Shown: positions 4,590 through 60,904 of the stretch, piece after piece
Numbering within the stretch: position 1 is the first letter of the stretch
How the letters are laid out: every line of letters begins with the position of its first letter
Source of the DNA: a candidate division FCPU426 bacterium
GTDB lineage: Bacteria; Oederibacteriota; Muellerivitia; Muellerivitales; Muellerivitaceae
Assembly (NCBI GenBank): GCA_963796105.1
Contig: CAWCKJ010000004.1
Coordinates: forward strand, 192,001 to 256,000
DNA: 64,000 nucleotides
Direction of reading: 5' to 3'
Program-made: the position numbers and the translations under genes
Notes under the pieces: generated by a model
Told to the model about the DNA's origin: nothing
Database searches by the model: none
Seen by the model: the letters and a program-made list of their open reading frames with translations, nothing else

Positions 4590-6680
4590 TTAAATTTCAG
4601 CCTTTCTGAAAAGCAATAAAAGGTCGGTAATCCGAATATTCCTTATTTCCGAGACAGGCCGCAAGCGGTAAACACCGTTGCTTCCCCGCATATAACATAA
4701 ATCGCAATATCGCTGGATGAAATCATCCAGCCGTCCCCATTCCTCTGTGTTTAAAGAATAGACATAGGGGTAGTCCCGGGATAGACGGATGCCTTCCCGT
4801 CCTGAAACGGCCAGGGCATCCACGCCTAATTTTTTTAGCCCTCGAAAAATCTCATCGCCGTTCTTGGCCTTTTTCGCGAGGGAAGCCAACATTTGCTCGT
4901 CGAATGCGCTATTAGTGAGGAAAGGCTGTCGGTAATAAAGTCCACGGCTGTCCCCCGCAACCAGGATTCGGGCATCAGCCGGAAGTATTTGGGCGCAGGC
5001 CTCAGTTAAATCGTAATAGGTGTTGGTAAGATCGGATTGGGCAAGATACTCGGAATGGAGTTCCGCTCCGAACCAGACTTTCTGGCTTTGGTAATAAACC
5101 GTGCTTAACCGGCAAAGGGAAAGAAAACCAATCAAACCGAATAAAAGAGACATGGTGGCCCAAGCCCGAATAATGGATTTCACCTTGATATCGGACAAAA
5201 CGCAAACCATGGCTATGAGGCTTAATAGAATCGCCGGCATCGCCAGCCTCAATTGATGCGATACACCGAAACTCGCAATCAGATAAAGAACACTCAATAA
5301 CGCGATTTTCTTGGCGGATTTGGAAAAGGAGAAGCGGAAGAATAAAAAAGGCAGGAATGAAAAAAGCATCGGCGCGATGGATTGGGTCAAATCCCTGATA
5401 AAGATCAATTGGAACCATCTGACCGGTGATTCCCCTGATCCCCAAACCGCCGCGTGATCCCCCATCAAGCCTTTGAGATTTTCCAAGGGAAGGCTTTTTC
5501 CTTCGAACAAGGCGGATAAATAGGGATAAAAGGGATCCCCGGTAAAAAAATAATTTTTTATCGCCCACGGGGATAGAACCCCGGCTATCAGCAGAACAAA
5601 CCAGATCCAGCCCCTGGCGGAGTTTGTCTTACCATGGCCTTTAAAAGATGAACTTAAAACAACGAGTCCAATGAAAATTCCAATGACTGCAGTGTATTTG
5701 ATGGTCAAAGCGGTCCCGCCAAGAATGGCGGCTGCATAAACCCAATTCGTTTCTCCCTTGGTCCAGCGCGTTAGTCCGTAAAAAAACAGGACAAGATAAA
5801 GACACAATAAGATGTCGACTTGAGTCGTCCAAACGGTTGATGATACTAGTGGAAAAGCTGAGACCATTCCGAAAACAAGGAAACCATAAGTCGTCCCGGC
5901 CATTTCCGCCACCCAACCCGACGCGGCTAGGAGAAGGGTTCCGGCGGCCAAAGCGTTCAGCGTTTTGGCAGCCTCGGCTCCCTGGAAGAAAAGACCGTTG
6001 AGAAAATATAGTTCCCCGCCGAACGGGTAATAGGAATAAAGGTTGGTGGGAAAATCTATAATTCCATGGTGAAAAATCCAATAACTCAATGTGGATAGGT
6101 GATAAGCCAAACTGTCGTAATAAACTTCAGGGACAGCGCCTTGGGCCAAAGAAAATATTCCCAAAGTAATTCCGAGAAGAAACAGCAACCGCAAGGAGAG
6201 TTCTTCTGGCAACTCGAATCGAAAGGCAGGACGCTTCATAAGAATGAATAAAAACTCAATAAGCGCTATGCCCCAAGCGAAAATGGCAATAAGGGAAACC
6301 AAGGGTTGGTACCAAAGGCCAGATAAACCCAGTCCGAGCCAAATGCTGTTAGCTCCCCCCACTCCCAGTGCGAAATCCATGGAGATTTTTAAAGCCCTAT
6401 TCCCAGTGGATAAACCCAGCCACTTTCTAAAACGCCTTCCCCAAATCACAATCGTCAGCCAGATATTCAGGGACAAAAGAAAGGTCTTTAGAAAATACAG
6501 ACTGTTGGATTGAAAGCGAAAATAAGTGGCTGATTTCAAGTCCGCGAGGAGAGTCTTGAGGAAGGCGAAATCGGTTATGGATGACCAAGAGAAATAATAG
6601 AAAAAGACTATTCCCGCCCATACTACACTCAGGCCCAATAATCCCTTTTTCCTCGCAGTCAAGTTCTCAGCTTTTCCCAT
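4590..6680 (-). CDS. Polytopic membrane protein, probable GT-C fold (ArnT/PMT-like) glycosyltransferase
   Basis: Many hydrophobic segments; YYDSLAYHL loop, KYTA, SPWAIKNYFFTGDPFYP pattern; soluble C-terminal domain. Confidence 0.6.
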   Translation of the reverse strand: MGKAENLTARKKGLLGLSVVWAGIVFFYYFSWSSITDFAFLKTLLADLKSATYFRFQSNSLYFLKTFLLSLNIWLTIVIWGRRFRKWLGLSTGNRALKISMDFALGVGGANSIWLGLGLSGLWYQPLVSLIAIFAWGIALIEFLFILMKRPAFRFELPEELSLRLLFLLGITLGIFSLAQGAVPEVYYDSLAYHLSTLSYWIFHHGIIDFPTNLYSYYPFGGELYFLNGLFFQGAEAAKTLNALAAGTLLLAASGWVAEMAGTTYGFLVFGMVSAFPLVSSTVWTTQVDILLCLYLVLFFYGLTRWTKGETNWVYAAAILGGTALTIKYTAVIGIFIGLVVLSSSFKGHGKTNSARGWIWFVLLIAGVLSPWAIKNYFFTGDPFYPYLSALFEGKSLPLENLKGLMGDHAAVWGSGESPVRWFQLIFIRDLTQSIAPMLFSFLPFLFFRFSFSKSAKKIALLSVLYLIASFGVSHQLRLAMPAILLSLIAMVCVLSDIKVKSIIRAWATMSLLFGLIGFLSLCRLSTVYYQSQKVWFGAELHSEYLAQSDLTNTYYDLTEACAQILPADARILVAGDSRGLYYRQPFLTNSAFDEQMLASLAKKAKNGDEIFRGLKKLGVDALAVSGREGIRLSRDYPYVYSLNTEEWGRLDDFIQRYCDLCYMRGSNGVYRLRPVSEIRNIRITDLLLLFRKAEI

Positions 6681-6833: not shown

Positions 6834-7502
6834 TTAAGGGCAAGCGGTGTAAACAAGTCTGAGATTATCGAGATAGACATTGCCTGTTCCCTTGGTTGTA
6901 TTGGCGTTGATGATGAGGTAAAGCTTTGTTAGGTAGGTACTGGAAACGACCCCATTCGCGGCCTTCAGAATTCCTCCAGCCCCAAGATTGATGCCCCAAG
7001 TCACAGACTGTTGTCCGCTGGTAATTGCGGGTTGACTGGAACAAATGGGTTGGTAAAAGGTGACGGGACTGTCGGCCAAAAGCATCAATTGGCTGTATGA
7101 GGCTCCAGCTAGAACTGTTGGGTCAATATAAATATCGGCGATCAGCTGGCTGTAATTATTCCAATTCTGTGGTGAGGAAAATGCTTCAATGTAAAACTGG
7201 TCGTTCCAATTATTAGGACCAGGTCCTGAACTAGCGGGAAGCGGATTGGTTATATCCAGGTCCAGGGACCACTGGCCTTGGGCAACATGTAATGGGGAAA
7301 GGGTTTTTGTATCGGTACTGCCGGTTATGTTCGAGAATTCCGAATTGCTCTCAAATCCATGAAATAGAAAAGGGGCACAGGGAGGTTTTGTTTTCATTTC
7401 TGTTAAAGATGGAACCTGAGTAGTGCATCCCTGGAATAGCACGATTAACGGGAGAAAACCCAAAACAATCAACCCCAATTTCCAGATTAATTTTATTCTC
7501 AT
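6834..7502 (-). CDS. Lipoprotein with a CBM-like beta-sandwich domain
   Basis: Signal peptide with lipobox FQGC; ends GNVYLDNLRL; resembles a module of the 40572-44531 protein. Confidence 0.65.
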   Translation of the reverse strand: MRIKLIWKLGLIVLGFLPLIVLFQGCTTQVPSLTEMKTKPPCAPFLFHGFESNSEFSNITGSTDTKTLSPLHVAQGQWSLDLDITNPLPASSGPGPNNWNDQFYIEAFSSPQNWNNYSQLIADIYIDPTVLAGASYSQLMLLADSPVTFYQPICSSQPAITSGQQSVTWGINLGAGGILKAANGVVSSTYLTKLYLIINANTTKGTGNVYLDNLRLVYTACP

Positions 7503-7565
7503 CGTTTCATCCTCATCTTTGGATTCCGATAAAAAAACGGAACCCCTTTTCCAGTGCCGGTCGTT

Positions 7566-9944
7566 TTAAAACCGAACTTCGTAACTCAACTCAATGAATT
7601 GGTTCACCAACGTCCCCTGGACAGGGTTTGTTGGCATCATATTTCCAGAAGTCCAATCATAATCAATGAAGATATTGGAATTCCGGTTGACCTTGAAAAC
7701 ATTAGAAAATCTCCAGCTTTGAATTTTCCCGTCCAATTGGACAGGCGAGTAAAGGGTTAGGTCCGCATTATCATACAAATAGGAATACCGGACCCAAAGC
7801 GTGCCACCCAAACCTTCCTCGATCCCCTTGGCGGTCTGTTGGCTGAAAGCCGCCGAAATTTCCCATACTGGCAGTAGATCCACTCGGATTCCCCCGATGA
7901 TCCAAGTACTATCGAGAGAGCCCAAATCGCTGGTGGTCCGCTCGTATCGGACGTTGGTTCCCAATTCCAAATCCCGATCCCAACCCAAATAAGGGCCCAG
8001 GTTGAAGGAGGGGCCCACGTTGATGTATGTGAAATTACGAGTCAACACTTGGTTCGTGTTATACCAGCCGTCCACCGGAGCATAACCAGTTCCTGTGGTA
8101 TTGATCACCATATTGCCGGTCATTTCTTTGACCAAATAGGCAGACCCCTTAATTTTCAGTGAATCCTTATTTAAAGTTTTCAGATCAATATCCAACCCGA
8201 ACCCTTCCCGATTCGGAGTAGCCAATCCATAAGGGAAAGTATTGTCCTGGGTGCGATCGTAATACCCGAAAATGGCTCCAGGCCGTGGTACATTCGATAG
8301 GAAATACTGGCTCCTTAGAACCGGATCATAAAGATCAGGAGAAGTAATAAAACTTGAGCCAGAGTTGGCCGCATCTTGGCGAGTTTGAGCCAGGGGCGAA
8401 TAATAATAAGGCCCAACATTCAAATAATTTAACGAAACCTTAGAATTAGCGAATTGCAGATAAGGCCCTGCCATGACCGCAAAATCCCCGATCATGCGGT
8501 TCGGATCTCTCTTGTCGTCCTGGTAACGGGAATAAGCGTATTCAGCCATTCCGCCAACGTAGCACTCATCCCCCAGCCCTACCTTTACATCAGGCCTTAC
8601 ACTTCCGGTCAGATATTGATGGGCCCAAGTCAATGGATTCATCGGATCGTACGGGGAACCAGGTTGCTCGGTATCCAACGGTTCGTCCAGGATGAGACCG
8701 AAGGTATCCAGACTCAGTTGGAGGGTATTGGAACCCAACATCCATTGAGGGGTCTTCAAACCTGCTGATCCGCCGAAAATCCAATCCGTGTATTGGTTGG
8801 GGCCGTAATACCAGCCCCCGTTGTCACTAAACCCATTTCGAATCATATGTATGAAAGTTGAAACCTTCAGTAATTCCAACAGATCCGAATCAGGCCACAT
8901 CAAGGATTCCCCTAGTCTCAAACCACGGAAAGGCCAATAAGGCTCGTTGTTGAAAAAACTCTCGTACTTCTCGCGGGAGTCCCACCTGGCCCACATTTCG
9001 GGCATGTATTTTAAATCCAACGTGTTGCGGTTCCACAAGGTGAAAGGAGTGTAAGCCTCGTCAAAATCACCTAAGGTAGCTGAGAGCCAGGAAGGATTAA
9101 AATCTAGGGATATACGACGGACACTGAATGAAAAATCAGAATTAGACGGTAAAAAATTTGAACCAATTCTAAAAATAACATTCCAGCGCACTTCTTTGGA
9201 GATTGTACCCTCGGGTTGTAAATCTAAAAAACCATAAGTATTCCTCGCGCCCATCAATCCAACATCATCGCCGGAAGATTGTTGTGTAAATCCAAGCCCC
9301 AGTCCATAACCATGCACCGCGATGGTTGGATATTGGGAAATTCCCTTAAGCTTCTTCCTCAAATCATACTGCTCGGATTCAAAGTCGGCAGTTTTAGTCT
9401 TGAGAGCCTTCAACTTGTCTTTCAATTCCTGAAGCTCATAACTGTATGCTTCTTCTAGGCTATGAAGGGCTTTGGCGGCTTTCAGGCGGGCTTGCTCCCG
9501 TTCGGCCGGCGTTGAAGCAACTGGTCCTGTGTTGGACGCCGGAGCCGCCTCAGTCTCTTGCGTCGGAAGCAGCATGTCTTCCTGATCGGAGGCACTTGGA
9601 GTCACCGCCGCCTGAGCCAATATGATTGCACTGGAGGTTTTCTCCGCCTTTTGGATTAACTGGACCACATCGAAGCGGGTCAAACTGGATGGAGTAACAT
9701 CCTTGTTGGAAAGCCAACCTGCTTGGGCCAATTGTTTCAATTCTGTATAGGTGGGATCCCCAACTGATACAACGCCAAAAAGATTACTTGAGGGAATTCC
9801 AAGCGCAAACAACGGCATGCATAAAAATAAAATGAACGAGCAAAAAAATGGCCCCATTTGGGCAAATCGGAAATATTTGTTTTTTCTTACCACGATTCGC
9901 GAAGTCTCCTGATTAGAGTATTTTTCATCAGAAGGATGTTTCAC
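7566..9944 (-). CDS. Putative outer-membrane protein: SLH-like N-terminus, coiled coil, beta-barrel (third of three)
   Basis: DPTYTELKQLAQAG...LTRFDVVQLI SLH-like segment, heptad helix, amphipathic strands, C-terminal ELSYEVRF; true start may be downstream of the GTG. Confidence 0.65.
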   Translation of the reverse strand: MKHPSDEKYSNQETSRIVVRKNKYFRFAQMGPFFCSFILFLCMPLFALGIPSSNLFGVVSVGDPTYTELKQLAQAGWLSNKDVTPSSLTRFDVVQLIQKAEKTSSAIILAQAAVTPSASDQEDMLLPTQETEAAPASNTGPVASTPAEREQARLKAAKALHSLEEAYSYELQELKDKLKALKTKTADFESEQYDLRKKLKGISQYPTIAVHGYGLGLGFTQQSSGDDVGLMGARNTYGFLDLQPEGTISKEVRWNVIFRIGSNFLPSNSDFSFSVRRISLDFNPSWLSATLGDFDEAYTPFTLWNRNTLDLKYMPEMWARWDSREKYESFFNNEPYWPFRGLRLGESLMWPDSDLLELLKVSTFIHMIRNGFSDNGGWYYGPNQYTDWIFGGSAGLKTPQWMLGSNTLQLSLDTFGLILDEPLDTEQPGSPYDPMNPLTWAHQYLTGSVRPDVKVGLGDECYVGGMAEYAYSRYQDDKRDPNRMIGDFAVMAGPYLQFANSKVSLNYLNVGPYYYSPLAQTRQDAANSGSSFITSPDLYDPVLRSQYFLSNVPRPGAIFGYYDRTQDNTFPYGLATPNREGFGLDIDLKTLNKDSLKIKGSAYLVKEMTGNMVINTTGTGYAPVDGWYNTNQVLTRNFTYINVGPSFNLGPYLGWDRDLELGTNVRYERTTSDLGSLDSTWIIGGIRVDLLPVWEISAAFSQQTAKGIEEGLGGTLWVRYSYLYDNADLTLYSPVQLDGKIQSWRFSNVFKVNRNSNIFIDYDWTSGNMMPTNPVQGTLVNQFIELSYEVRF

Positions 9945-12177
9945 AAGTCACCTTCCATATTTGCTCACGCCTGTCAAAGCTCGGTACATTGCTCCAGGAA
10001 TATGTATTGATGAAGCAGTCCCCATGAATCTCAAATGTGCGGCTCACGGGGCATTTGAACCCAAAAGCCCAGGAAGTTTTCGTGAAATCCAGGAGTTGGA
10101 GATTGTATAAAGCGTTGGCCGGTAGCGTATTGAAATAGGAATAATATTCAGCCAAAGTCGGGTAATCCGACGATTGGGCAAACGCCGAGTTGTTCAAGGT
10201 ATATTCGTAACCGCTGGACTCGGCCTGTTCGTAGGCCGCCGAGAGAATCAAGCCTTCAAATAGAGGGACCTGGGGGAAGGGGCCGATGTCCGCGCAGACG
10301 ATAAGGGTATCAACGGTAAAAGGGCCTAACCCGGTCCCACCGTCGGTGGCTTGGTGTTTGTAATCACCTGATAACGCGCAGGTCTTGGGCGCCCCCTCTA
10401 GGGCCTTTGCCAGGTTCGCAGTCAATGCCCCTTCGTACCCTTCAAAATTCCTGGTATTAGTCACGGGTTGGCCGGAGTCCGCCGGAAGTACCTCATTTCC
10501 ATTGCCCGTCAAGACATAATTTGGCTGGAGTTCCTTCATTTTCAATATGTAGGACGCCTGGGGTTTCAGCCATCCTCCTTTTCCAATGTCGGCAGTGAAT
10601 CCAAGGACCGCGCCTTCCCGGTTAGGGGTCGCGTCCCCGTAAGGCAGGATGTTCTCACTCATTCGGTCATAGGGTTCGAATATCTGTTGGTTGATCCCTT
10701 GGAAGGCAAACCCAGACAGGTAATCATTAAGCCCGTCATCCAAAAGGTTGAAACCACTGCCTGCCAAATCCGGCGAAAATCGGTTGGTTTGAGCCCCCGG
10801 AGAGTAGAAATAAGGACCATTACTGAGATATTTGGCCGATAACTGGATTCCCTCGACATTAATAGAACCTTGGGTCAACACCGCCCAATCCTTGAGGGTG
10901 TCCTGGGGGTTGATGGTATCGTTCTGGTATTGGCTGGAAGCGTACTCACCGGAAGCCGAAACGCTGACTGAGTTATCAAGAGGAACATTTGCGCGGGCCG
11001 AAAGGCTGCCCACCTGGTATTGCCGGTTAGGCGGGGTAATACCTGGATAATAGTCTGCGGAATTGGAATCCGCCCAAAGCAAAAGCCCGCTCCCCTTAAA
11101 TTCTAACTGGTTCTTGAAGAGATCGATAGAAGCCTCACTGCCAGCGTAATCGTTGGCGAAAATGTATTGGGATTCCGGCGTAACAATTCCGCCCATTGCC
11201 TGGAGATGGAAGGAACTGAAAACCTCGCTGTTGGAAACCACTTGGTCGGAAGCCCCCTCAAAACCCCTCATGTGCCAGTCAGGTCCATGGTCCATATAAA
11301 CTAATTCCTCAATATCTTTTCGAGCCCTATTAAAAGAAGTCGGCTCGATCATGGTGTAGACGGGAATTTCGTTGTTCCAAAAGGTTAAGGGAGTATAGCT
11401 TCTGTAGAAATCGCCCACCGTGAGGTTCGCCACATCGTTGGTGTTATTGAGGGAAATCCACCTCAAGGTGCAGTTAGGGTTGATAGGTTCCCCGTAAATC
11501 ATTCCGACGGTGCGGGTGAGACGCAAATCCGCGTTAAACAGAACAAATGGAACCGGAATGCTTTTCAATCGTATATCCCCGAACAGGATATCGTTGTAAT
11601 CCATGGGGCCATAAACCGCGTTGGTTCCAAAACCGCGGAAAGTGTTGAAATAAGCCCTCGCGTAACCAGTCAGGTTGGTCCCGGTTTGTTTGAGGTATTC
11701 CTGCTGGAGGATCGAGAATTTTTCATTGCGGTGCCGGATGTCGTAAAACCTGTCGTCCAAACGAACCACATCCAAATCCATGACTTCCAATTCGGGCTTG
11801 AACTCATCCACCAGTTTTTGAAGGTTTCGATCCGGGAGGCCGGGGGAAGTTTTTAAATTAGAACCGCCCGAAGTTACCAACTCTTGGTCTTGAGATGTCC
11901 AGGACCGAACAGCCAAACTGGTCATCTGGGCCACTTCCAAATTGGTCATTTGGTTAACTGGTTTCACCGGTTGCGGGACCAAACCAGCATCTACTATTTC
12001 CTGAATGGCAGAATTAACCCATCCATCCCTGTCTGAGGTCGTCAGCGCCCCATGAACGGCAAGGGCTGGTAGCACAGGGCAAGACAGAAAAACAATAGTG
12101 TAAAGAAGAACTTGCTTCACACCGATCAAGTTTTTAATTTTTTCTTTTAACACTTTTATCTTTGCCCCTTGTGTCAA
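9928..12177 (-). CDS. Putative outer-membrane protein: SLH-like N-terminus, coiled coil, beta-barrel (second of three)
   Basis: WVNSAIQEIVDAGL...MTNLEVAQM; shares GDF..YTP.T.WN, GPY.YSP.AQT and PYG.ATPNREG with the 7566 protein; ends in Phe. Confidence 0.65.
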   Translation of the reverse strand: MTQGAKIKVLKEKIKNLIGVKQVLLYTIVFLSCPVLPALAVHGALTTSDRDGWVNSAIQEIVDAGLVPQPVKPVNQMTNLEVAQMTSLAVRSWTSQDQELVTSGGSNLKTSPGLPDRNLQKLVDEFKPELEVMDLDVVRLDDRFYDIRHRNEKFSILQQEYLKQTGTNLTGYARAYFNTFRGFGTNAVYGPMDYNDILFGDIRLKSIPVPFVLFNADLRLTRTVGMIYGEPINPNCTLRWISLNNTNDVANLTVGDFYRSYTPLTFWNNEIPVYTMIEPTSFNRARKDIEELVYMDHGPDWHMRGFEGASDQVVSNSEVFSSFHLQAMGGIVTPESQYIFANDYAGSEASIDLFKNQLEFKGSGLLLWADSNSADYYPGITPPNRQYQVGSLSARANVPLDNSVSVSASGEYASSQYQNDTINPQDTLKDWAVLTQGSINVEGIQLSAKYLSNGPYFYSPGAQTNRFSPDLAGSGFNLLDDGLNDYLSGFAFQGINQQIFEPYDRMSENILPYGDATPNREGAVLGFTADIGKGGWLKPQASYILKMKELQPNYVLTGNGNEVLPADSGQPVTNTRNFEGYEGALTANLAKALEGAPKTCALSGDYKHQATDGGTGLGPFTVDTLIVCADIGPFPQVPLFEGLILSAAYEQAESSGYEYTLNNSAFAQSSDYPTLAEYYSYFNTLPANALYNLQLLDFTKTSWAFGFKCPVSRTFEIHGDCFINTYSWSNVPSFDRREQIWKVTCETSF

Positions 12178-12180
12178 TTC

Positions 12181-14985
12181 CTAAAACGAGAAAATAAACA
12201 TCGAATAGACCTGGTCGGCCTGGTAGCTGTTGGCCGAAACGTAAAGATCGCGGAATGTCACATGCTTATACCGCATTTCTAATTTTCCGCCGCCCCAAGG
12301 AAAATCATAGGCCATACCGGCCCCGAGAGAATCCGTCCGGTAGTCCACTTTGGGAATGGTGTAATTAGATTTCCACTGCTCCAATCCATAGTCTGCCAGG
12401 AGGTTGACCCATTTAAAAATGCCGTACATGAAAGCCGCGTCGTAAACGGTCTGGTCGAATAGACACGGGATATGGGCCAAGGTCTGTCCCGGACGGTTGG
12501 GGTCGGCTACGTTCGCAAGGGTTGGATTGTTCGTGTCACCCGATACCTCATTGTCAGTGAAAAATAAACCCGCGTAGAAAGGGGTATTCAAGCCGAGCAT
12601 TTTATTGAGCTGCAATTTCGCGGTAACCGTGGCGTAGTTAAAGGTTTTTATATGGTCTAGGGAAGTAAAAGTCACGCCGTTATCAGGAGAAGTAACCGAC
12701 TGTGAGCCTGGAATGTAATTTAGGATCAAAGGCACACGCTCCGCGATGGGAGGACCAAAACGGATAACATCGGGATTGAAAGTATTGCCGTCGCCCCGAG
12801 AAGACTCGATATTACTTACATAGGCTGCTCCCGCAGGATGCATCCCTTGGTATCCATCCCAAACGTTACTGCCGAAAATACCAGTGCTTTCAGGATAAAA
12901 AACCGATATCAGGTTGTAGGCCTCAACGGATTTATATCCCATTTCATCGGACACGGCTTGGTACTCGGTTTTCCGGGCCACATCCATATTGATGATCAAA
13001 TCGTCCAGGAAGCTTGGCAGGGATTTGGTCCAGCTTTCCTGGCGGCCCTTCCAACCCAATGTGGCCCGCCATCCATAGCGGTCACTGATCAAGTCATCCG
13101 CCATGCCCACAAATCCAAACTGGTCGTTCATGACGGGATTATTGTTATTGGTATTGGCCGGGAAACCGAATTTCCAAAATTGGATCCCCGTCAGGAGAAC
13201 TTTACTCTGGAAGTTTGAGTACTGCTCGCTAATGGCCGTGTAATAAAGCGTGAGGGGATAAAGGCTGAGGGCTGCTTGGCCCGCCGGCGCGCTTAAAGTT
13301 TGCGCCAGTGCGATATTCCCGGAATGAAAGCTGACCGGCCCTCCATCGTTATAAACACCGGTATAAAGATGGGTATAACCGCCCTCGATATCCAAAAACG
13401 CTGGTTTCAGGTCAAATCCCAAATCCGCCGCGTAAGATTTCATATCCATGTTCCCTTGCGTCAAGGGGGCGGAAAGCCCGTTATCGTTCACCCACAACGC
13501 CGAAAGGGAAGAAAGTAAAAACCCATTGGCCCAAGGTTGGGCGTACTTAATCCCCTCCTCCCATTGGTGGGTATCACCATCCACTCTCCCGAAGAGCATG
13601 TTCATTTTCGCGTCTTTGCTCACCAAGGGAAGGCTCGTCCCGACCATGTAAAGACCGTCGAAAACCTTCGTGGTTTGGTTTTGGGTGATCCAGGAAGTGG
13701 AACTGGGCACGTATCCCAAATTGGTCATATAGTCATCCCAGGTTTTCTGGTTCTTATCCCCGGAATATCTTTTCACGTCAAAAGGATCCTCGAAACGCAG
13801 GGCATTCGCCGCGCCGCCCCTCGTGAAGTCCCCGTAGTCAGTGTCCCAAGTGTAGGATTCCACGGCAATGGTACTGCTCCAATGGCCCAACATCCCATCC
13901 AGGTTATAGTTCAAGGAAGGGGCGCTGATATACAGGGAGGCCGGGGCTGAGGTAGCGTTTGAGGACTGAAGGGTGCTTTGTAAATTAACGGTATAAGAAC
14001 CCTTCCCTCCTAAATCACTCCAAACGCCTAAAGTGAAATCATTCGCCACCGCGGTGGCGCTGACGATAGTAATTCCTGACAGATGAAAGTTCTCCGCCTT
14101 GACGTCGGCCTCATAAATGAAATGGGGGGAAGTCGAGGATTTGTTGGACTTGCGAAAAATGGAGTTGATGTCGTCCTGTGTTGATTGGAGGGTTTCCAAT
14201 TCTTTTTCCTGGTCCTGAAGGCGGTAATCCAGCAGGGCCATCCGCGTCCGAAGATAATCCGACTCCTCGTCGAGGATCTTGAGAAGCGCGTTAATTTCAG
14301 TCTCAATATCGGTGTTGGCGGGCTGAGCCGGTATCGAGGCGGAGCCCACTTGCGCGTCAACCCATTGCTGTTCCGCCTGCGTCAGCCTGGCCTTCACTCG
14401 CGTGAGGTAATCCCGAATGGAGGGATTGGGTTGTTTCTGGATGAACTGGGTCAAAGCTACCGCGCCTTCCTTTGTTTTTCCCGCCATGACCTGGCAATAA
14501 CCCAGGTAATAGTAGGCCATCGCGATATTGGGGTTTTGCTGGATGACAGCCTGGAATTTGGGAATGGCTTGCGCGTACTGCTTTTGCTGATAAAGGGAGA
14601 ACCCTTGCACAAAATCTTGGTTCTGAGCCGGTGTTGCCACCGTTACTGCCGCCGCTGGAGCCGGATTTGCGGTTAAGTCGGTAGTAGACGCGGCTTGGGG
14701 CGCCAATGCGACTTGCAACTCTTTGGAAGTTTGGTAATTAGCCTTGGCCTTTTCAGTGAAGAAACCAAGCTCCAGTTTCGTCACTACCCGGCCCTGGTCG
14801 AGAACAGCTTGGTCTTGGGGGTCCAAAAGGCCGTAGGCTTCCAACGCTTTTACCCGCTGGTAAAGGGGCTGGTCGGAGGTCACATTATCCGAAGGATTGG
14901 CCCAAAGGCTTGTCGCTAGTGTCGTTGTACATAGAAGGGATAAGAAAAAAATACCCTTAAATGATTTTTTTAATCGTCGATTCAA
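12181..14985 (-). CDS. Putative outer-membrane protein: SLH-like domain, TPR insert, coiled coil, beta-barrel (first of three)
   Basis: Signal peptide; PLYQRVKALEAYGLL...VTKLELG; TPR-like AIPKFQAVIQQNPNIAMAYYYLG; C-terminal MFIFSF; TTG start with GAGG upstream. Confidence 0.65.
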   Translation of the reverse strand: MNRRLKKSFKGIFFLSLLCTTTLATSLWANPSDNVTSDQPLYQRVKALEAYGLLDPQDQAVLDQGRVVTKLELGFFTEKAKANYQTSKELQVALAPQAASTTDLTANPAPAAAVTVATPAQNQDFVQGFSLYQQKQYAQAIPKFQAVIQQNPNIAMAYYYLGYCQVMAGKTKEGAVALTQFIQKQPNPSIRDYLTRVKARLTQAEQQWVDAQVGSASIPAQPANTDIETEINALLKILDEESDYLRTRMALLDYRLQDQEKELETLQSTQDDINSIFRKSNKSSTSPHFIYEADVKAENFHLSGITIVSATAVANDFTLGVWSDLGGKGSYTVNLQSTLQSSNATSAPASLYISAPSLNYNLDGMLGHWSSTIAVESYTWDTDYGDFTRGGAANALRFEDPFDVKRYSGDKNQKTWDDYMTNLGYVPSSTSWITQNQTTKVFDGLYMVGTSLPLVSKDAKMNMLFGRVDGDTHQWEEGIKYAQPWANGFLLSSLSALWVNDNGLSAPLTQGNMDMKSYAADLGFDLKPAFLDIEGGYTHLYTGVYNDGGPVSFHSGNIALAQTLSAPAGQAALSLYPLTLYYTAISEQYSNFQSKVLLTGIQFWKFGFPANTNNNNPVMNDQFGFVGMADDLISDRYGWRATLGWKGRQESWTKSLPSFLDDLIINMDVARKTEYQAVSDEMGYKSVEAYNLISVFYPESTGIFGSNVWDGYQGMHPAGAAYVSNIESSRGDGNTFNPDVIRFGPPIAERVPLILNYIPGSQSVTSPDNGVTFTSLDHIKTFNYATVTAKLQLNKMLGLNTPFYAGLFFTDNEVSGDTNNPTLANVADPNRPGQTLAHIPCLFDQTVYDAAFMYGIFKWVNLLADYGLEQWKSNYTIPKVDYRTDSLGAGMAYDFPWGGGKLEMRYKHVTFRDLYVSANSYQADQVYSMFIFSF

Positions 14986-15005
14986 AATAGCCTCGGGTCA
15001 AAAAG

Positions 15006-15019
15006 TTAAACCGGTTTCA
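15006..15019. promoter_or_regulatory. Palindromic operator-like site TTAAACCGGTTTCA
   Basis: One mismatch from the perfect palindrome TGAAACCGGTTTCA; 20 bp upstream of the first OMP gene; LacI/cre-like form. Confidence 0.45.
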
Positions 15020-15037
15020 AGCCCTCATTAACATTTA

Positions 15038-15808
15038 TCAAAAAAACTCGACTTCATCCACCCAGTAATCGATGTTGTAACTTCCCGCGGTGTTGCCCGC
15101 GTTATGGGTCCATTCAATACCCAAAATTTCCTTCAGGTGCTCTGTGAATTCGGGGGGCGTGATGGTGTTGCCCCATCCGGGCTGCCGGGTGAGGTTCGCG
15201 AAAGGCAATGTCACCAAGGTCCATTCCCCTTTGGAGGCAAGGTCATAACCGAAATTATTGTAACAACCGTCCAAGCAAGTTCCTCCAGCTGAAGAGGGCA
15301 TGATGGGCGCGATGGAAATGGCGAACCGTCTGGAGGGAGCCTGATCCCCCGCGGGATACTTATAATAGAACTGGATTCCTTTAAAGGGACTGGCATCGTA
15401 ATAACCGGTTGGTTTTAATTTGCCGTCCAAAAGGAAAGCGGGATAGGTATTATCCCCCTTATTCACCAGCTTGCCGAAAACATGGGCGGCCATCTTGGTG
15501 CCATTGGCTCCGCCCGCCGTCACGAAAACCTCGTTGATGGTGTTTCCGCCGTAAGTATTTGTGCTCCAGGCCCCGTTCGTGGAGCCGTAGAGTTTGGGGT
15601 TCATATGAACCGAACCATCCTCAAAATTCCCGATGATTTTTTGTTCGGGAGCCACGACCACTTTGGGCTGGGAGTTCTCGGGGTTGACCAATCCATCCGT
15701 CAGGGGCTCGTTCTTCGAACCTTCGTTCACCAGGACCGCCCCGCATCCTGCCAGTAAACCAAACACGAGGAAGCAAGGAAAGAGGATGGAATATTTCAAC
15801 TTGGTCAT
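15038..15808 (-). CDS. Lipoprotein with a CBM11/CIA30-like carbohydrate-binding domain
   Basis: Lipobox LAGC; YDASPFKGIQFY, WTLVTLPFANL.RQPGWG, YWVDEVEF; start at ATG 15808 with GGTGG upstream. Confidence 0.7.
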   Translation of the reverse strand: MTKLKYSILFPCFLVFGLLAGCGAVLVNEGSKNEPLTDGLVNPENSQPKVVVAPEQKIIGNFEDGSVHMNPKLYGSTNGAWSTNTYGGNTINEVFVTAGGANGTKMAAHVFGKLVNKGDNTYPAFLLDGKLKPTGYYDASPFKGIQFYYKYPAGDQAPSRRFAISIAPIMPSSAGGTCLDGCYNNFGYDLASKGEWTLVTLPFANLTRQPGWGNTITPPEFTEHLKEILGIEWTHNAGNTAGSYNIDYWVDEVEFF

Positions 15809-15921
15809 AGCCACCTTTTTTGAACGAATGGCCCGGATAGGCATCAGCCTGGAAAGCATCCTTAGGCGAGGCGGGCTTATTCTACTAAAAAGCGACGAGA
15901 AGCCGAAATGATTTTCTTTGT

Positions 15922-25393: not shown

Positions 25394-28300
25394 TTATCTC
25401 CGGATTAAGAGTTTCATGACCGAAATATTTGTTTTCCCGTTTTTTCCATCCACCACTACCAGATAATAAAGCCCATTCGCGATATTCCCAACCTTGTTCC
25501 AATCCAGTTGGACTAGATGCTGTCCTTGGGAGGTATCAAGGCCAGAATTCTCATAGACTTTCCGAAATGCCAAGGTGAAAAGTTTGACGGTGACTCGGTC
25601 GGTATTGGCTGGAACCGTGTGATAGAAAGACAATGGAACATTTCCCTCCCAGGGGTTGGGAAAAGCCAAGTTATTGTTCGGGACGGGTGTTTCCGTAACA
25701 GTGGAAGTGATAGTGGCGGTAGAGGTGGGGGTTGGCGTGGGGGTAATCGTGGGTGTGGTAGTTGGAGTCGACGTGAAAGTCTGGGTGGAAACGCCGCAGG
25801 GACATTGGCCTTTCAGGGTGCAATAGACCTTATTGGCGAAAACACTGTAGCCCGCGGCGTTGAGGTGCACCCCGTCGGAGTACCATTCAGGGTGGTTCAA
25901 GGTCGCGTCGAAAACATCAATCACGCAGACATTCATTTGCTGGGCGATTTGAAGGAGGAGGGGATCTCTTGGTTGTAGAGCGTGGCTTCCGTTATCCCCG
26001 CGAAGTCCTGGTAAACCCAAGGGGGCAGGCAGAGATAAACCGTGGGATGGCTTCCCAGGTTCTGGAAGGTCTGGATCATGGCCTCGTAATCCGGGATGAA
26101 GTCGGATTCGTACTGCCAGTTTCCGCTTTTGGTGTCGTTGGTCCCCAGGCAGATCACCACGATGTTGGGTTGGAAATTCTGGGCGTCGATAAACTGCTGT
26201 CCGTTCCAATAGGGCAAATCGCCCAATTTCAAAAGGGTAGACCCGAAATAGCCATCGTTCTGGACCTGGTAGCCAGGGCCTAATAATGCCCCCAAGTCAG
26301 CCGGATAACTTTGGGAACCGGGAGCCCCTGTCCCATACGTGATGCTGTCCCCCACGCAGGCGATCCGGATAACAGGGCTTCCCGTGGGGGTCAAGGAGGG
26401 GGTGTAGGTAACGGTAAAAGTGATGGAAGGAGTAGCTGTCAAAGTCTGCGTAAATGTGGTGGTTGGGGTATCAGTCGCGGTGCCGGTGGCGGTAACTGTG
26501 GTAGTGGCCGTAGGCGTGCCGGTGTTGATTGGGGTGGAACTCGAAGTAAGAGTTTCTGCAACCGTCAGGCTGATAGTGGCGGTAGGGGTCAGTGTCAAGG
26601 TAGGGGTGTCCGTACCAGTTGGGGTAGGGGTTAATGAGTTCGTGAAAGTGATCGACGGGGTCAAAGTAATGGTGGATGTTGCCGTCGGAGTGGTTGTTTG
26701 GGTCTGTGTGGAAGTCCCGGTGAATGTTGGGGTGATGGTCGCGGTCGATCCGGAAACGGCGCAATCCAGGTACTCGCTCCAATTTTCCGAGGTGCTGACC
26801 ATGGTGTTCAAGGTCCCGGGATAAGCCCCGAATGCGAAGTCCTGCACAAACCCGGTACCGGCTGCGCCCGGGGTGTAACTGGGTATGTCCAGTGTTGTAT
26901 CCACCTGCCAGCATAACCAGTAAGTTCCGGGATTCAGCGACAGGGATGAGGGGATACCAGAGGAAATATTCTGGGTGATCCATCCCCCGCTGGTGTTATT
27001 CACGATCGCACCGGAATCCCAAAGCAGGTTCGGGGGAGAGGAATTGTCGTAAATTCCCAAGCGGACGTGCCCGCTAGCCGCAGTGGAATAAAATTTAATG
27101 TCATTCACAACCGCGGTTTGGCTCAAAACCGCCTGGGTGCCCTTGATGGCCGCCTTCTGCGAAAAAGCCACCTTGACCACCTGACCCGGCGAGCTGTCCG
27201 TCCCGAAATAGGCGTAACCCGCGTTGTTGTCGATCACCGAGCCCTGGGCGTAAACCTCCCCATAAGGGAAGGTAAATGGCGGTACCGTTTGCGGGGCATT
27301 GTCGAAATATTGCGGATTCCCGTCGCAGACGGTCATTGCGAAACCTGGCTGGAGTTGCAGGGGAGCCCCCGCGTTTTCCGTGGGGGCCGAATCCCCGGCG
27401 TTATTTTTGACCTTGAAGACCTTCATGGGGAATACGCCGTCCGTGCCGTAGATCGTGTAACCGCTAGGAGGGTCGGCCAATCCCGAGGACAAGGCCTGTT
27501 CCAGGGCCGTGGAGCCCGTGCATCCCCCGCTTCCAGGATTGAGAAAGCCCTTGGACACCTCGGTGAAATTGGACAGGTTGATCTTGACCACGTCCGCCTG
27601 CCTGTTCGGGACATAGAGCCCGCAATAAAGGTAATGGGTCGAAGTGGTGGTGTCCACCGCCGGAAACCGGCCGTAGGCGAAAAAATCCCCCGTAGTGACC
27701 GGGTCGCTGGTGGTTAAAACGGCGTTTTCTGTTGGGGCATTGGCGCCATTCAGGGCGACCTGGACAATTTGATTTGAGGTGTAGCAGTTGAAATAAGCGT
27801 AGCCCGCGGAGGGGTCAATGGTACCGTGGACGGCCCCTCCGGTTCCCGGAAAGACGGGACTATTGAGGGTAACCCCGCCTCCCCCCACGAGCGCGGGCGG
27901 GGTCGTGTCGGGCGGCCCCCCATTGGCGGGTGAAGCCGGAAGAGACAATTTATAGACGATGGCGGGACTGGTATAGGAGATGAAATATGCGTAATGTTGG
28001 GAAGGATCCGCGTTGCTGGCGTCAATGGCCGCCCCGCCCACCGATCCAACGCTTAGCGTAGCCTCTTCAACGGGGGCAACGCCCGGTCCGCCCAGCTTGA
28101 CCTTATGGACAAGTGATCCGGATTGAAAATAAGAGTAGCCGTTGACCGAATCCATGAGAACATCCCCGAAATTCCCGCCGCTTGCCAGCGTCAGGGTGCT
28201 TTCCTCGGTCATAGCGCCTAAGTTGATTTTTGAGAAGGTTCCGTTTCTTCCCCCAAAATAGCCATATCCGTTGGCGGGATCGATTCCGCCCCCATAAAGG

Positions 28301-28476
28301 CCCTGGTAGTTGGGGTTGCTGAGGACAACATTTCCCACGCGCCTTAAGCCCTGGGTGGGATAGGCGGTGCTTCCGGCGGAGGAGATTCCCAACTGTTGGC
28401 CGTAACCGAATGGGGCGGTTTCCAATAAGAGGATCAGCGCAAAAAAGAATGTTTCGGTTAAATTCAGGGGCCGCAC
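25394..28476 (-). pseudogene. Frameshifted gene (or assembly error): beta-propeller-like region, Thr/Pro linker, SGNH esterase, T9SS-type C-terminal domain
   Basis: GDSITYG and LGTND blocks lie in ORF 25933-28476; DGVH and the FPNP...GLYY...K tail lie in ORF 25394-26209; one added base at the G4 run 25960-25963 joins them. Confidence 0.8.
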
Positions 28477-28827: not shown

Positions 28828-30153
28828 TTAATTCGCCCCGGCCGGCTGGGCATCGGCGTCCCCGAAGTTCAAGGGGTTCCCCTGGCTGTCGTACAGGTCG
28901 AAGGAACCGTCCCCCAGGGTGACCATGATCTCCAGTGGCTGGCCCTGGGAAACGTCTGAAAATTTCACGCCAGTCACCTGGGACGCCAGGTAAATAGGGT
29001 TGAAAGTGGGCGGGATAGCCGCGTCAAACAGGAACGCGTCCCCTGTATCCGTCAACACCTTCACCATCCGGGTCCCGTCGGGGCTGGAATAGATGGATAC
29101 GTTGGCCGCCTGGGTCGCGGTCACCATCGTGTCCTTGGCGGAATCGCAGGGGATATATTGTCCGTCGGAATAGAAATAAAGGTCCGCCACGTGGTAGGGG
29201 TCCTGCCACCACCAATAACCGTTGTCCCAGAAGCACCAGCGGTCGTTGTCCGAGTCGTAAAACCACCAGCGGTCCTGGTAATAGCGGGTCCAAAAATAAT
29301 TGTCCCCCAGGTACCAGCCGTACCATTGGTAGCCCCAGCCGTCCACATAGTGGCAGTAATTGAAGCCGTTGCCGTTGTGCCAGTAATAATGACCGGCCCG
29401 GGTTTCCGACTGGTTCATCTGGGCCACTTGGCTCGTCATCTCGTCGCCATGGACCAGGTTCATGTGGTTGAGCACGGAGGGATCGTTGAAGTTTTTCGAC
29501 GGGATGACCGCGGCCATCAGGGGCGTTTTGTTGGGCCCTTTTTGGGGAAAACGGATGGCCGAGTGGTCCTTGTCCGCGACCATCATCTGCTGGCGGTCGG
29601 TGATGTAATGGGCCAGGCTGGTAACGCCCAGTTTCTGGAGTTTTTTTCGGACGTATCCCGCCGTGAAGGGATGGTGGTGGTGGACCACGTTGCTGGTGGG
29701 GGCCACGCTCACGAATTGGGTGGTATTAACAGCCATGTCTGGCCGGCTGTTCCAGTGGATATTGGGCTTCTGACGGATGGCCGCGCTATTAAACGTACCG
29801 GCGACACCGATCTTATGCTGGTAAACGGCCTGCTGGGCCGTCTTTGGGGCTTGTGGAGCGGGCTGGGGCGCTTGGGGGGCCTGATGGGAAACTTGGGGCG
29901 CCGGCTGGCTTGGACGGGACGGACCGCTGTTGTTCCGGAAAGCCGGTTTGCTGATGTCAATTCTCACCGGCTGGCTCACCGCCGCCGCAACCGGCGCGGG
30001 CCTGGCTGGTTTTTCCGACGCCGCCCCCACTGGCGGGCTGATGGGTTTTTCATTTCCCTGTTTTTTGAGTAAATCGTTCCGGTCGATTTGGGCGTAAAGG
30101 GTCCAGCTTTGAAGTAAAGCCGCCGCCAGGAAAATAACGAGTATTCGTTTCAT
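28828..30153 (-). CDS. Secreted hypothetical protein with a Pro/Gln/Ala-rich linker and a Trp/Tyr-rich segment
   Basis: Signal peptide; GWGYQWYGWYLG...RWWFY...RWCFWDNGYWWWQ. Confidence 0.7.
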   Translation of the reverse strand: MKRILVIFLAAALLQSWTLYAQIDRNDLLKKQGNEKPISPPVGAASEKPARPAPVAAAVSQPVRIDISKPAFRNNSGPSRPSQPAPQVSHQAPQAPQPAPQAPKTAQQAVYQHKIGVAGTFNSAAIRQKPNIHWNSRPDMAVNTTQFVSVAPTSNVVHHHHPFTAGYVRKKLQKLGVTSLAHYITDRQQMMVADKDHSAIRFPQKGPNKTPLMAAVIPSKNFNDPSVLNHMNLVHGDEMTSQVAQMNQSETRAGHYYWHNGNGFNYCHYVDGWGYQWYGWYLGDNYFWTRYYQDRWWFYDSDNDRWCFWDNGYWWWQDPYHVADLYFYSDGQYIPCDSAKDTMVTATQAANVSIYSSPDGTRMVKVLTDTGDAFLFDAAIPPTFNPIYLASQVTGVKFSDVSQGQPLEIMVTLGDGSFDLYDSQGNPLNFGDADAQPAGAN

Positions 30154-34267: not shown

Positions 34268-35953
34268 TCAATAAACTTGGATATTATCCAGCATCAGGTC
34301 GAAATTGCCGCCACCGGTGTAATGCCAAAGCAATTGTATGACATGCTGAGGATCAAATCCTGCTGAGGCCGTAAAGGGCTGCGAGAAATTCTGCCAGCTA
34401 TTGGTCAAAGTCACGTTCCAGGAACCTTCCGTTCCGCTTAAATTCGTGGTCCCAAAAGTCCAATTAGTGGCGCCCACACCCGCGGGTCCTTCCTTGCAAA
34501 GGAACTCAATGTTTGAATACTGGCCTCCCTGGGTCATGTCGAAAGGTGTCGTTACTCCCGCGCTGACTGAGGAAACCCCAAACCCGATATTTCCGCTTCC
34601 TGTGCCGGCATAATCAATGCACCAGGGGTCGGGATTACCTGAGGTGTCCGTGTTCATGGACCTGAAAAATGTCGCTCCCCAGGGATTGAATCCCGTCGCT
34701 ATGGAAGGACAGCTGTTCGAGGTGCCGTAAGTAAACCAATAATTAGGCGGGTATCCCAAGGGGCCCGAGATGGTGTTGGTGGCGTTCGGATATCCCGGGG
34801 GGAAACCCATCCCGCTGTCGATCATAGCGGTCGGCATAGGCGTGGGAGGGGCCGGATCGGCGTTTGAGACGAACTGGACCTGGTCCACCACGATATCGTA
34901 TTTGAACGGGTAATTGCCCGCGCACCAGGGCGACCAGACAATATCCTTCAGCGAGGAATAGTTTATAGCGGCCCCGGAGTTCAGCTGGTCGAAATAAATC
35001 GTGTATTGTTTCCAAGAATTGGTCAACGGAATCATAAGGTTCCCTTGATTGGTGATTGGAAAGGTAATCCAGTGCATGATGAACTGGCAGGGCATTGCGT
35101 TTCCGCAAATAGGGGCGCTGATATTACTGCCGGAGGTGTTTTTCGCGATGGCCCAAAAACTGATGCCAGTGTAATTCAAGGCGCCCGTCACGGGATAAGT
35201 GGGAGGTATCCCATAACCCGGTTGGTTGCAAAAATAAAAACCAAAACTCGCCGGGGAATTATCGGGGGGATCGCTTGAACTGCCGTTGATTTGTCCCGAG
35301 AACTCCATACCGTTTCCGGAGTACCCCGTAGCCAGGGCGAGTGGATTTTGCGTGTCCGCACCGCCCGGCCTGCTTAAACCGTCATCACCCACGAACCAAG
35401 TCCCGTCCCTTGTATTTCCGTTGGCGTCCATCATGAGAATGATCTGGCTGACAGGCACTCCCCCATTCTGCGTGCAGTCCATATCGGCGATCATGTCTGG
35501 ATTGGAGCACACAACAACGTTTACAGTTGGCGTGGGGGTATTAGTCAAGATTTGTGTAGGGCTGTTTGTGATGGTGAATGTCGAAGTAATCGTAGGTGAA
35601 AAGGTAGGAGTTAACGTCGCCGCAAAGTTTGATGTAGATGTTTGTGATGGGGTAGCTGTTAAAGTGGAAGTCAGTGTGTCCGTCGGGGATTGAGTCCCAG
35701 TCTCCGTATTCGTCGGCGTCGTTGTCACTGTGTTGGTCAAAGTGTGAGTACTGGTTGGAGTTCGCGTTGGGGTCGGAGTCGGGGTTACTGTCGAGGTGAA
35801 AGTGGCTGTTTGGATACTGGTATTGGTGGCGGTGGCGTTCGCGGAAGGCGACACCGGTGGAACCGAGAAATTTCTCGTGCATCCCACGAAAAGAACCCCG
35901 GTTACTGCCACGCCGAGAAATGTCCAGGTGATCCATTTTTTTCCGTTTTTCAT
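34268..35953 (-). CDS. Thr/Pro-stalked lipoprotein with two CBM11-like domains
   Basis: VGCTRNFSV lipobox; long Thr-rich stalk; YTGISFWA...WKQYTIYF...VDQVQF and WQNFSQPF...LDNIQVY. Confidence 0.72.
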   Translation of the reverse strand: MKNGKKWITWTFLGVAVTGVLFVGCTRNFSVPPVSPSANATATNTSIQTATFTSTVTPTPTPTRTPTSTHTLTNTVTTTPTNTETGTQSPTDTLTSTLTATPSQTSTSNFAATLTPTFSPTITSTFTITNSPTQILTNTPTPTVNVVVCSNPDMIADMDCTQNGGVPVSQIILMMDANGNTRDGTWFVGDDGLSRPGGADTQNPLALATGYSGNGMEFSGQINGSSSDPPDNSPASFGFYFCNQPGYGIPPTYPVTGALNYTGISFWAIAKNTSGSNISAPICGNAMPCQFIMHWITFPITNQGNLMIPLTNSWKQYTIYFDQLNSGAAINYSSLKDIVWSPWCAGNYPFKYDIVVDQVQFVSNADPAPPTPMPTAMIDSGMGFPPGYPNATNTISGPLGYPPNYWFTYGTSNSCPSIATGFNPWGATFFRSMNTDTSGNPDPWCIDYAGTGSGNIGFGVSSVSAGVTTPFDMTQGGQYSNIEFLCKEGPAGVGATNWTFGTTNLSGTEGSWNVTLTNSWQNFSQPFTASAGFDPQHVIQLLWHYTGGGNFDLMLDNIQVY

Positions 35954-60286: not shown

Positions 60287-60322
60287 GGAGCTAACCTCTC
60301 TAATTGGCATTGTACCGGCTCC

Positions 60323-60404
60323 CCGGATTCAACGATTTACGAACTTTTCGCCTAGAATTCCCTAAATAAAATTAAACCAGGGCCGGATTCAACGATTTGC
60401 GAAC
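60323..60404. repeat. 22-bp direct repeat CCGGATTCAACGATTTRCGAAC, two copies 60 bp apart
   Basis: 60323-60344 and 60383-60404, one mismatch, at the composition boundary. Confidence 0.8.
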
Positions 60405-60436
60405 CCTTGAACTCTTAATATTCAATGTTTAAAAAT

Positions 60437-60904
60437 CTAAATACCATCAAACATTTTACCGATTAAAAGATTAGCAAAAAAATACGCACCAATCAGGAAC
60501 AAAACAACACCCGCCTGCTTCCTTGCTATCTCATAATTACCTCTAAGCAAAAATAATAACATTCCGCAATAAGAAACAATTAATGCACTAAATAAATTGC
60601 GATATCTATTTAGTATTTCCGTGAGAGAAAAATGATCTGTATTAGCATAATCAAATAATTGTTCGCCACAGGTAAATGGATAAAGCCACACAACGAGGAG
60701 AATAAATGAAAGTAAAAGAACAACTTGTCCTGAAATAAAACGGAAATATCTTTTATTCTCGCAAAGCATGTAAATTCCCAAAAAAGGAAAACCATAAGGA
60801 ACAACGATAAAAGAAACCAGAAGAATTAATCCACTAATCACATTCCATAAAAATTTGAACACGTCAATTGTTTCATGAATAAATTTCATCGGGTTGAAAT
60901 CCAA
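60437..60904 (-). CDS. Hypothetical membrane protein
   Basis: AT-rich ORF with about 4 hydrophobic segments. Confidence 0.55.
   Translation of the reverse strand: MDFNPMKFIHETIDVFKFLWNVISGLILLVSFIVVPYGFPFLGIYMLCENKRYFRFISGQVVLLLSFILLVVWLYPFTCGEQLFDYANTDHFSLTEILNRYRNLFSALIVSYCGMLLFLLRGNYEIARKQAGVVLFLIGAYFFANLLIGKMFDGI

Follow-up and report, generated by a model that had tools for sequence, protein, structure and literature searches.

How does a bacterium take up the products of glycan degradation when the membrane proteins encoded beside its glycoside hydrolases belong to no named family? The question is raised by a locus of a candidate division FCPU426 bacterium, of which we analyzed 64,000 nucleotides (assembly GCA_963796105.1, contig CAWCKJ010000004.1, positions 192,001 to 256,000; hereafter, the window). 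Five genes in this window, called here LP1, A, B, C, and LP2, encode two lipoproteins and, between them, three large predicted outer-membrane barrels, and an earlier note on this DNA had proposed that they form a glycan uptake machine independent of TonB and of SusC/SusD. Judging from profile homology and gene order, the cassette is a three-subunit, stalked variant of the "atypical polysaccharide utilization locus (PUL)" of Cytophaga hutchinsonii. We consider it rather probable that A, B, and C form a plugless, 22-stranded A·B·C complex that is tethered to the wall and passes oligosaccharides without TonB, with lipoproteins resembling carbohydrate-binding modules (CBMs) as its capture subunits.

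The Five-Gene Cassette

The open reading frame (ORF) calls place LP1 (15038-15859, 273 aa), A (12181-14985, 934 aa), B (9928-12177, 749 aa), C (7566-9944, 792 aa), and LP2 (6834-7502, 222 aa) on the minus strand, with intergenic distances of 52, 3, -17, and 63 nt, and thus confirm the five co-oriented, tightly packed genes of the earlier note. Its start for LP1, 15808, is Met18 of the ORF call and is nearly invariant in homologues. LP1 has a lipobox (LAG-C39) and a CBM11-like domain, and LP2 has a lipobox (FQG-C27) and a weak CBM17/28-like signal. The product of A consists of a signal peptide, SLH-like helices, a linker with a TPR insert, a coiled coil, and a predicted barrel; B has an SLH-like segment, an OmpM-like coil, and a barrel homologous to that of C; and C has an SLH-like segment, a coil, and a predicted 22-stranded plugless barrel. 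All three end in Phe, as had been claimed, and the long motifs said to be common to two of the large proteins are present in B and C. These two are 28% identical across 525 aa (E 3e-30), match at 100% over 686 columns when compared as profiles, and are paralogues by these measures. Pfam and NCBIfam gave no family name for the barrels or the lipoproteins, and only the TPR stretch in A was named.

Relation to chu_1276-1280 of Cytophaga hutchinsonii

The link to C. hutchinsonii runs through orthologous metagenome loci, not through the C. hutchinsonii sequences themselves. A profile built from 15 proteins of the B/C family matched 2,287 cluster representatives at E ≤0.001, and among the best 150 was a block of stalkless proteins of 560-600 aa (about E 1e-54 to 1e-66); a taxon was recorded for 3 of the 20 that were looked up, in each case Cytophagaceae or Cytophagales. 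With an alignment of five stalkless sequences, 48 metagenome loci were gathered. Wherever these had a co-oriented upstream gene of >500 aa, it matched the A-family profile (28/28). The stalkless B-like family matched the window B and C at 99.9%, and the upstream genes matched the window A-family barrel at 93.7% and a broad A profile at 99.65%, with controls from TonB-dependent transporters (TBDTs) at 0.7-2%.

Eight of the 48 loci were chosen by a fourth gene of 374-378 aa, CHU_1279 being 375 aa long. The published aromatic residues of CHU_1279, W89, F92, F180, Y253, F256, and F343 are found at the exact positions in five of the eight and with an offset of one in two more, and the eighth locus has five of the six residues, while 58 other ORFs of 350-410 aa reach two at most. 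The fifth gene encoded GH9 in all six of the chosen loci tested. Because of this fingerprint and the GH9 fifth gene (compare the endoglucanase gene chu_1280), we regard the eight loci as orthologous to chu_1276-1280, with A at the chu_1276 position and B/C at the chu_1277 position. The homology to CHU_1276-1280 that the earlier note suggested is in this way borne out.

The chu_1276-1280 cluster was reported to be co-induced by cellulose, and chu_1276, chu_1277, and chu_1279 to be needed for cellulose use, whereas SusC/SusD homologues were reported not to be (PMC12016534). Since other stalkless pairs adjoin genes for GH18 (2/2 tested), GH20, NagB-like, GH3, and SSF proteins, chitin and further glycans are likely substrates of the A+B pair as well. 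Many of the stalkless A+B pairs at L071-L117 lie in chitin-type loci, with GH18 upstream and GH20 or a NagB-like gene downstream, and two lie by GH3 and SSF genes.

Predicted Barrels

The AlphaFold model of C (pLDDT 78, pTM 0.70) consists of helices, a disordered linker, the coil, and then 22 long strands with no plug, and that of A (pLDDT 67, pTM 0.58) has the same number of strands, long loops after strands 5 and 13, and again no plug; in both, the barrel directly follows the coil. The predicted barrel of C covers residues 207-791 (7572-9326, minus strand), with conserved motifs at strand 5/loop 3 and in loop 7, and that of A covers residues 288-933 (12187-14124, minus strand), with long loops after strands 5, 13, and 15. 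The strand counts for A and C are our own, made from DSSP lists of the models, and that for B is carried over by homology; the barrels are presumed to be closed, and their loops, placed by the models, are presumed to fold inward by analogy with OmpM1. The two long loops behind strands 5 and 13 correspond to loops 3 and 7. In C, they hold the motifs that had been singled out before and are better conserved than any other long loop (0.77 and 0.74). Both models agree with the prediction that these proteins are beta-barrels and with the expected absence of a TonB-receptor plug.

Domain searches point the same way. The genome is that of a diderm, with BamA, LolA, and 9-12 TonB-dependent receptors. 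None of its 12 Plug matches falls within a cassette, nor does any TonB-receptor match, and the PF00593 and TIGR04056 profiles had no match in the cassette. The strand count of the A and C models equals that of TonB-dependent receptor barrels (22), and TBDT chains align to the C model only from about residue 135-290 onward, which we take to be after their plugs. A structure search with C returned tied generic barrels (SusC Z 14.1, OccD2 14.0, LamB 13.8, OmpM1 13.6). Foldseek listed generic barrels only (TM ≤0.34 by query) and no close solved fold, by which novelty of the fold is not shown, and a single-sequence search of the PDB with C gave no match.

The full-length profile of A matches B/C at 99%. 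The barrel of A by itself matches B/C at 92.6% when distant members are included and at 0.1% when the window A is compared with B or C alone, the TBDT control in this comparison giving 18% and 0.3%. Since the window-only comparison fails, the homology is detected only with the distant members, and on these profiles the A barrel is a remote paralogue of the B/C barrel. Descent of the barrels from TBDTs was also considered and is rejected by the profile controls, here and in the stalkless families.

The SLH-Like/Coiled-Coil Stalk

The profiles of A, B, and C each had OmpM1 of Veillonella parvula as the top PDB sequence match, through the SLH and coil regions (E 1.4e-4, 8.7e-5, and 8.5e-4, respectively), in agreement with the OmpM-like layout that had been proposed. 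The SLH-like segments lie at residues 40-92 of A (14710-14868, minus strand) and residues 55-112 of C (9609-9782, minus strand), by both profile and model. The claim of an SLH-like N-terminal segment holds as far as the profile match to the OmpM1 SLH and the helices in the models go; nothing in the genome exceeded the PF00395 (SLH) cut-off, and Pfam and NCBIfam miss the segments. The predicted coiled coils are visible in the models of A and C, and those of A, B, and C are 52, 50, and 50 residues long with almost no indels. Profile, coil lengths, and models thus agree on a coiled-coil linker to a C-terminal barrel, a trait of OmpM. The OmpM stalk is described as a three-helix coil with ligand grooves between SLH motifs (PMC10628300). 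Because there are three genes with one SLH each and equal coils, and OmpM stalks have three helices, an A·B·C stoichiometry is suggested.

The TPR insert in the linker of A (14311-14613, minus strand; about residues 125-225) is absent from the earlier note; its motif was found, among the loci examined, only in the window copy and in the cassette copy on contig C7. Copies of the insert that are 64% and 47% identical were seen at G000:C4:1135621-1135920 and G000:C2:476816-477082, which suggests a mobile domain that has taken the place of a Pro-rich linker.

The Lipoproteins

Compared with a profile built from seven lipoproteins of distant cassettes, LP1 gave a match of 98.9%; two of the seven pass the Pfam CBM11 cut-off, and the language-model neighbors of LP1 belong to the same clan as CBM11. 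LP1 and LP2 had no match over the PF03425 (CBM11) cut-off, LP1 had no Pfam match of any kind, and a search with an LP1 profile gave only noise. LP1 is accordingly best called CBM11-like, as the earlier note had it, and not a member of CBM11; its glycan binding, to beta-glucans if it behaves as CBM11 does, is putative. The description of the second lipoprotein as CBM-like fares less well: LP2 does show a CBM17/28 signal, but at E 0.025, below the cut-off. Its slot is taken by LP1-family lipoproteins in other copies of the cassette. No SusD-like match was found for the cassette lipoproteins. The third gene of the Cytophaga-type loci matched the distant CBM11 lipoproteins at 69%.

The segment directly after the lipobox Cys of LP1 is conserved. 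A lipoprotein encoded upstream of A at L057:14555-15271 retains this segment while the LP1 profile does not match the remainder of the protein, which suggests a docking peptide distinct from the cargo domain.

Copies, Range, and Co-Variation

Four complete LP-A-B-C-LP cassettes are present in the genome, in the window and at C4:349-360 kb, C7:44-54 kb, and C3:8-17 kb; the earlier note does not have the three outside the window. The A and B profiles have matches in 30/30 other genomes of the family and in the sister family's single genome; over the phylum as a whole, which is described as poorly sampled (FCPU426; PMC10434106), the A profile matches 53/99 genomes and the B profile 59/99. Scanning genomes with C alone found nothing, and a scan based on an alignment yielded 25 loci, all in named genome records. 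In 20 of these, the three barrel genes are contiguous; in each of the remaining five, a contig end interrupts the locus or its upstream part is unresolved. The synteny check proposed earlier thus shows a fixed A-B-C order. The identities of A, B, and C, taken pairwise over the 22 cassettes in which all three genes are complete, rise and fall together (rho 0.80-0.89), and 11-13 of 13-15 supported tree splits are shared; from this we conclude that the cassette is copied as a unit. Some of the extra copies, at G073:C52, G072:C26, and G072:C24, are disrupted by stops or frameshifts.

Thirteen stretches around weak and sister-family matches and five around complete cassettes were taken for comparison. 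In the distant families of the phylum, the unit is an A-like gene and a single B-like gene, mostly followed by lipoproteins, some of which pass the CBM11 cut-off. Look-alikes of A in the ESM Atlas (909 and 966 aa; score 0.89) were commonest in Omnitrophota, a possible further range of the A family that we give as a lead only.

Genomic Context

The cassette adjoins a glycan-degradation region (16170-58718, not assigned to one strand) that encodes two GH2 enzymes, GH44, an SGNH esterase, GH36, GH31, galactokinase, sugar-binding proteins, and a weak GH9/CelK-like match; the window copy is thus linked to glycoside hydrolases (GH44, GH2, GH31, and GH36). Extra copies of the cassette also sit among hydrolases, and periplasmic binding proteins flank several copies. 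The rlmD/lepA copies described below lack such linkage.

Some neighboring features are recorded here in their own right. A membrane protein with a weak LIC_10190-family match is encoded downstream of the cassette in the same direction (4590-6680); it has paralogues on contig C12 and was not seen beside the cassette in the other loci examined. Two overlapping minus-strand ORFs at 25394-28476 together carry an SGNH/GDSL esterase domain, one its N-terminal and the other its C-terminal part, and the split may be due to a frameshift or an assembly error. Four large ORFs of the glycan region (28828-30153, 34268-35953, 36226-39837, and 51013-52452) had no meaningful Pfam match. The end of the window (60001-64000) has a G+C content of 28-36%, vs. 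~55% elsewhere, and four short ORFs, three of which were tested and had no NCBIfam match; it is possibly an acquired island. Comparison with plasmids gave no match. At G000:C4:360035-364177 (L061:15036-19178), an RlmD methyltransferase is fused to a stretch of ~900 residues for which Pfam, NCBIfam, and the PDB gave no match, and such a fusion gene precedes the cassette of housekeeping context in 11 of the 25 related loci.

Proposed Mechanism and Alternatives

From the established genes, gene order, homologies, and predicted folds, we infer hetero-assembly, tethering, a lid role for the lipoproteins, transport, and independence from TonB. The ancestral unit would have been an A+B pair, as in chu_1276/chu_1277 of Cytophaga; its members bear stalks in the lineage of the window, where duplication of B into B and C would have turned A·B2 into A·B·C, the two-gene forms presumably being A·B2. 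In the proposed machine, surface glycoside hydrolases, whose genes lie nearby and whose activity is presumed, would cut the polymer. LP1 and LP2, with their folds assigned by profiles, would bind the glycan and concentrate it at the pore mouth. The conserved long loops 3 and 7 would take the place of a plug, narrowing each barrel and setting its selectivity, if they fold inward by analogy with OmpM1. Sugars would then flow down a gradient maintained by periplasmic binding proteins and hydrolases. As in OmpM, the three equal-length coils would join in a three-helix stalk and the three SLH motifs would grip the wall.

Several observations weigh against this reading. On the side of the carbohydrate link, 13 of the 25 related loci and one copy in the genome itself adjoin lepA, the rlmD fusion gene, or both, and no hydrolase is seen around them; pairs in two further genomes (G038 and G032) have lipoproteins with no CBM matches and likewise no hydrolase in view; and LP1 was found upstream in only 15 of the 20 contiguous A-B-C loci. 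Among 67 genomes outside the window's order, 28 have both cassette and CBM11, 4 the cassette only, 8 CBM11 only, and 27 neither; this co-occurrence speaks for the link, but it is partly circular, drawn from kin that are not independent, and based on a first look that misses weak matches, and the four genomes with the pair and no CBM11 count against the link in their own right. The window lipoproteins are single-domain, unlike the SGBP-B-like CHU_1278/1279 with their tandem CBMs, and have no detectable homology to CHU_1278/1279-type proteins (0.1-13% for LP1). A CHU_1279 deficient in cellulose binding was reported still to support growth, and the published model of CHU_1276 to retrieve TBDT hits (PMC12016534). 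The genome has TonB-dependent receptors of its own, as noted above. As to the stalk, the SLH motif is too diverged for Pfam, CsaB was not found in the genome (96.8% complete), which leaves the usual SLH ligand unexplained, and the stalk is dispensable, being absent from both barrels of G055 and from the Cytophaga-type loci. The carbohydrate link that the earlier note drew is upheld by the CBM-like lipoproteins, the hydrolases beside the window copy, and the homologues in cellulose and chitin loci, but is missing in the 13 rlmD/lepA loci and in the one such copy of the genome, although these keep CBM-like lipoproteins, so that a condition which the earlier note gave as refuting its reading holds in part; the copy in this context may be a constitutive one or a general porin and tether. 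With this exception, its interpretation is supported as regards the stalk, the plugless barrels, the gene order, the CBM-like lipoproteins, and the Cytophaga homology, while its heterotrimer, peptidoglycan anchor, lipoprotein lids, and TonB independence are conjectural.

Among the alternatives, the one that survives best keeps the barrels as glycan-uptake porins and divides them into homotrimers of each kind, or into A+B and A+C pairs, that are expressed together to cover complementary specificities. OmpM paralogues were reported to be homotrimers (PMC10628300), the stalkless A+B pairs show that two barrels are enough, and synteny by itself is no proof of contact. We nevertheless think this unlikely, as every intact locus examined has all three genes, always in the order A-B-C, the cassette duplicates as a unit, and the coil lengths match.

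It is more improbable that the barrels serve, as a translocon or scaffold, to bring the lipoproteins (and enzymes) to display at the surface, with sugars entering elsewhere. Lipoproteins, including some unlike CBMs, follow the pair in nearly every locus, the post-Cys segment of LP1 persists in a protein that otherwise differs (L057), and the TPR insert in A would suit such a role. So would the report that the presence of CHU_1279 counts more than its binding (PMC12016534), since growth support without binding fits a structural rather than a capture role. On the other hand, the models of A and C have no POTRA- or usher-like periplasmic domains, and disruption of chu_1276 was reported to impair growth on 0.1% glucose, a transport-like defect (PMC12016534).

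We give little credence to an energized transporter whose plug is supplied in trans, by a lipoprotein that occupies the 22-stranded lumen and is driven by TonB or some other motor. The strand number, the presence of TonB-dependent receptors in the genome, and the top structural match to the SusC barrel, which is tied with porins, would agree with it. However, the chains themselves have no plug, comparison of the barrel profiles with the TBDT barrels of the genome gives no match, and the long conserved loops 3 and 7 are already able to fill the lumen.

Least probable of all is a general porin and tether of the outer membrane, standing in for Pal, with carbohydrate neighbors only by chance, for although the cassette is found in all 31 family genomes, often in housekeeping context, and no Pal exceeds the cut-off in the genome, OmpA-domain proteins are present there, the CBM-like lipoproteins remain attached, stalkless homologues occur in cellulose and chitin loci, and extra copies lie among hydrolases. 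Under the wall-tethered A·B·C complex that we favor, outer-membrane tethering may be a second role.

Comparison with Known Systems

The more distant likenesses are to coil-plus-barrel proteins and passive sugar channels. Deinococcus SlpA and the cyanobacterial SomA/B-type porins have the coil-plus-barrel layout (SlpA_C at E 9e-4 for one distant A-like protein only; por_somb at E 0.012, a weak match), the Campylobacter 50 kDa outer-membrane protein is a weak match (10AW, E 0.0013), and LamB and chitoporin are passive sugar channels. All of these matches are below family cut-offs or tied with unrelated barrels, the strand numbers differ, and none has this gene cassette. SusC/SusD and other TBDTs resemble the cassette in the 22-stranded barrel size, the lipoprotein partners, and the position in glycan loci, whereas the cassette has no plug, no TBDT/SusC profile match, and no SusD-like lipoprotein.

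OmpM (V. parvula OmpM1; PDB 8BYM, 8BYS, and 8BZ2) shares with the cassette proteins the order of signal peptide, one SLH or SLH-like segment, coiled coil, and barrel, as well as long loops 3 and 7, and the coil motif of B aligns closely with it. The OmpM1 barrel itself has no sequence match to the cassette barrels, and its structural match (8BYM) is the tied one given above. The cassette differs in having a Pro-rich linker, three distinct genes in place of a homotrimer, lipoprotein partners, and a genome without CsaB, and its predicted barrels have 22 strands vs. 16 in OmpM1. As a homotrimer, OmpM binds peptidoglycan in modified form or a pyruvylated polymer of the wall. We take the lineage of the window to lie probably within Gracilicutes. 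OmpM was reported to be wholly absent from Gracilicutes (10.1101/2021.05.31.446380); if the placement holds, the OmpM-type stalks here would be an exception. In OmpM1, loops 3 and 7 were shown to narrow the lumen, and OmpM-like proteins were reported to have 16-30 strands (PMC10628300).

The closest counterpart is the "atypical PUL" chu_1276-chu_1280 (PMC12016534). Both have an A-family and then a B-family barrel gene, accompanied by genes for two CBM-like proteins, presumably of the surface; hydrolase genes lie in the vicinity, SusC/SusD is lacking, and the barrels are homologous by profile. The window lineage differs in its three barrels (B being duplicated), each on an SLH/coil stalk, in its single-domain CBM11-like lipoproteins, in having up to four copies per genome, and in belonging to another phylum. 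The atypical PUL was already known; new are the stalked form with three barrels, the spread of the family across phyla, and the barrel architecture without a plug, and we found no paper on any of these in a search that was thin in subscription journals. The report on C. hutchinsonii says of the products of chu_1276 and chu_1277 no more than that they are outer-membrane proteins and have a TBDT-like model (PMC12016534). The comparison gives them a family and a predicted plugless 22-stranded architecture with conserved loops 3 and 7, and points to candidate residues for mutagenesis in a host that can be cultured and genetically manipulated and that takes up cellulose products without SusC/SusD. 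The stalked three-gene form, for its part, predicts the stoichiometry of a complex, and suggests a feeding route for CBM11-rich uncultured cellulose degraders, Goldbacteria/FCPU426 having been described as rich in CBM11 (PMC7031533). Tentatively, and with some doubt, we see in these systems a third, cross-phylum route of glycan import by hetero-oligomeric plugless 22-stranded barrels with swappable lipoprotein lids, which would serve cellulose use in Cytophaga, recur in chitin loci, and take here the form of an A·B·C heterotrimer tethered by an OmpM-type SLH stalk.

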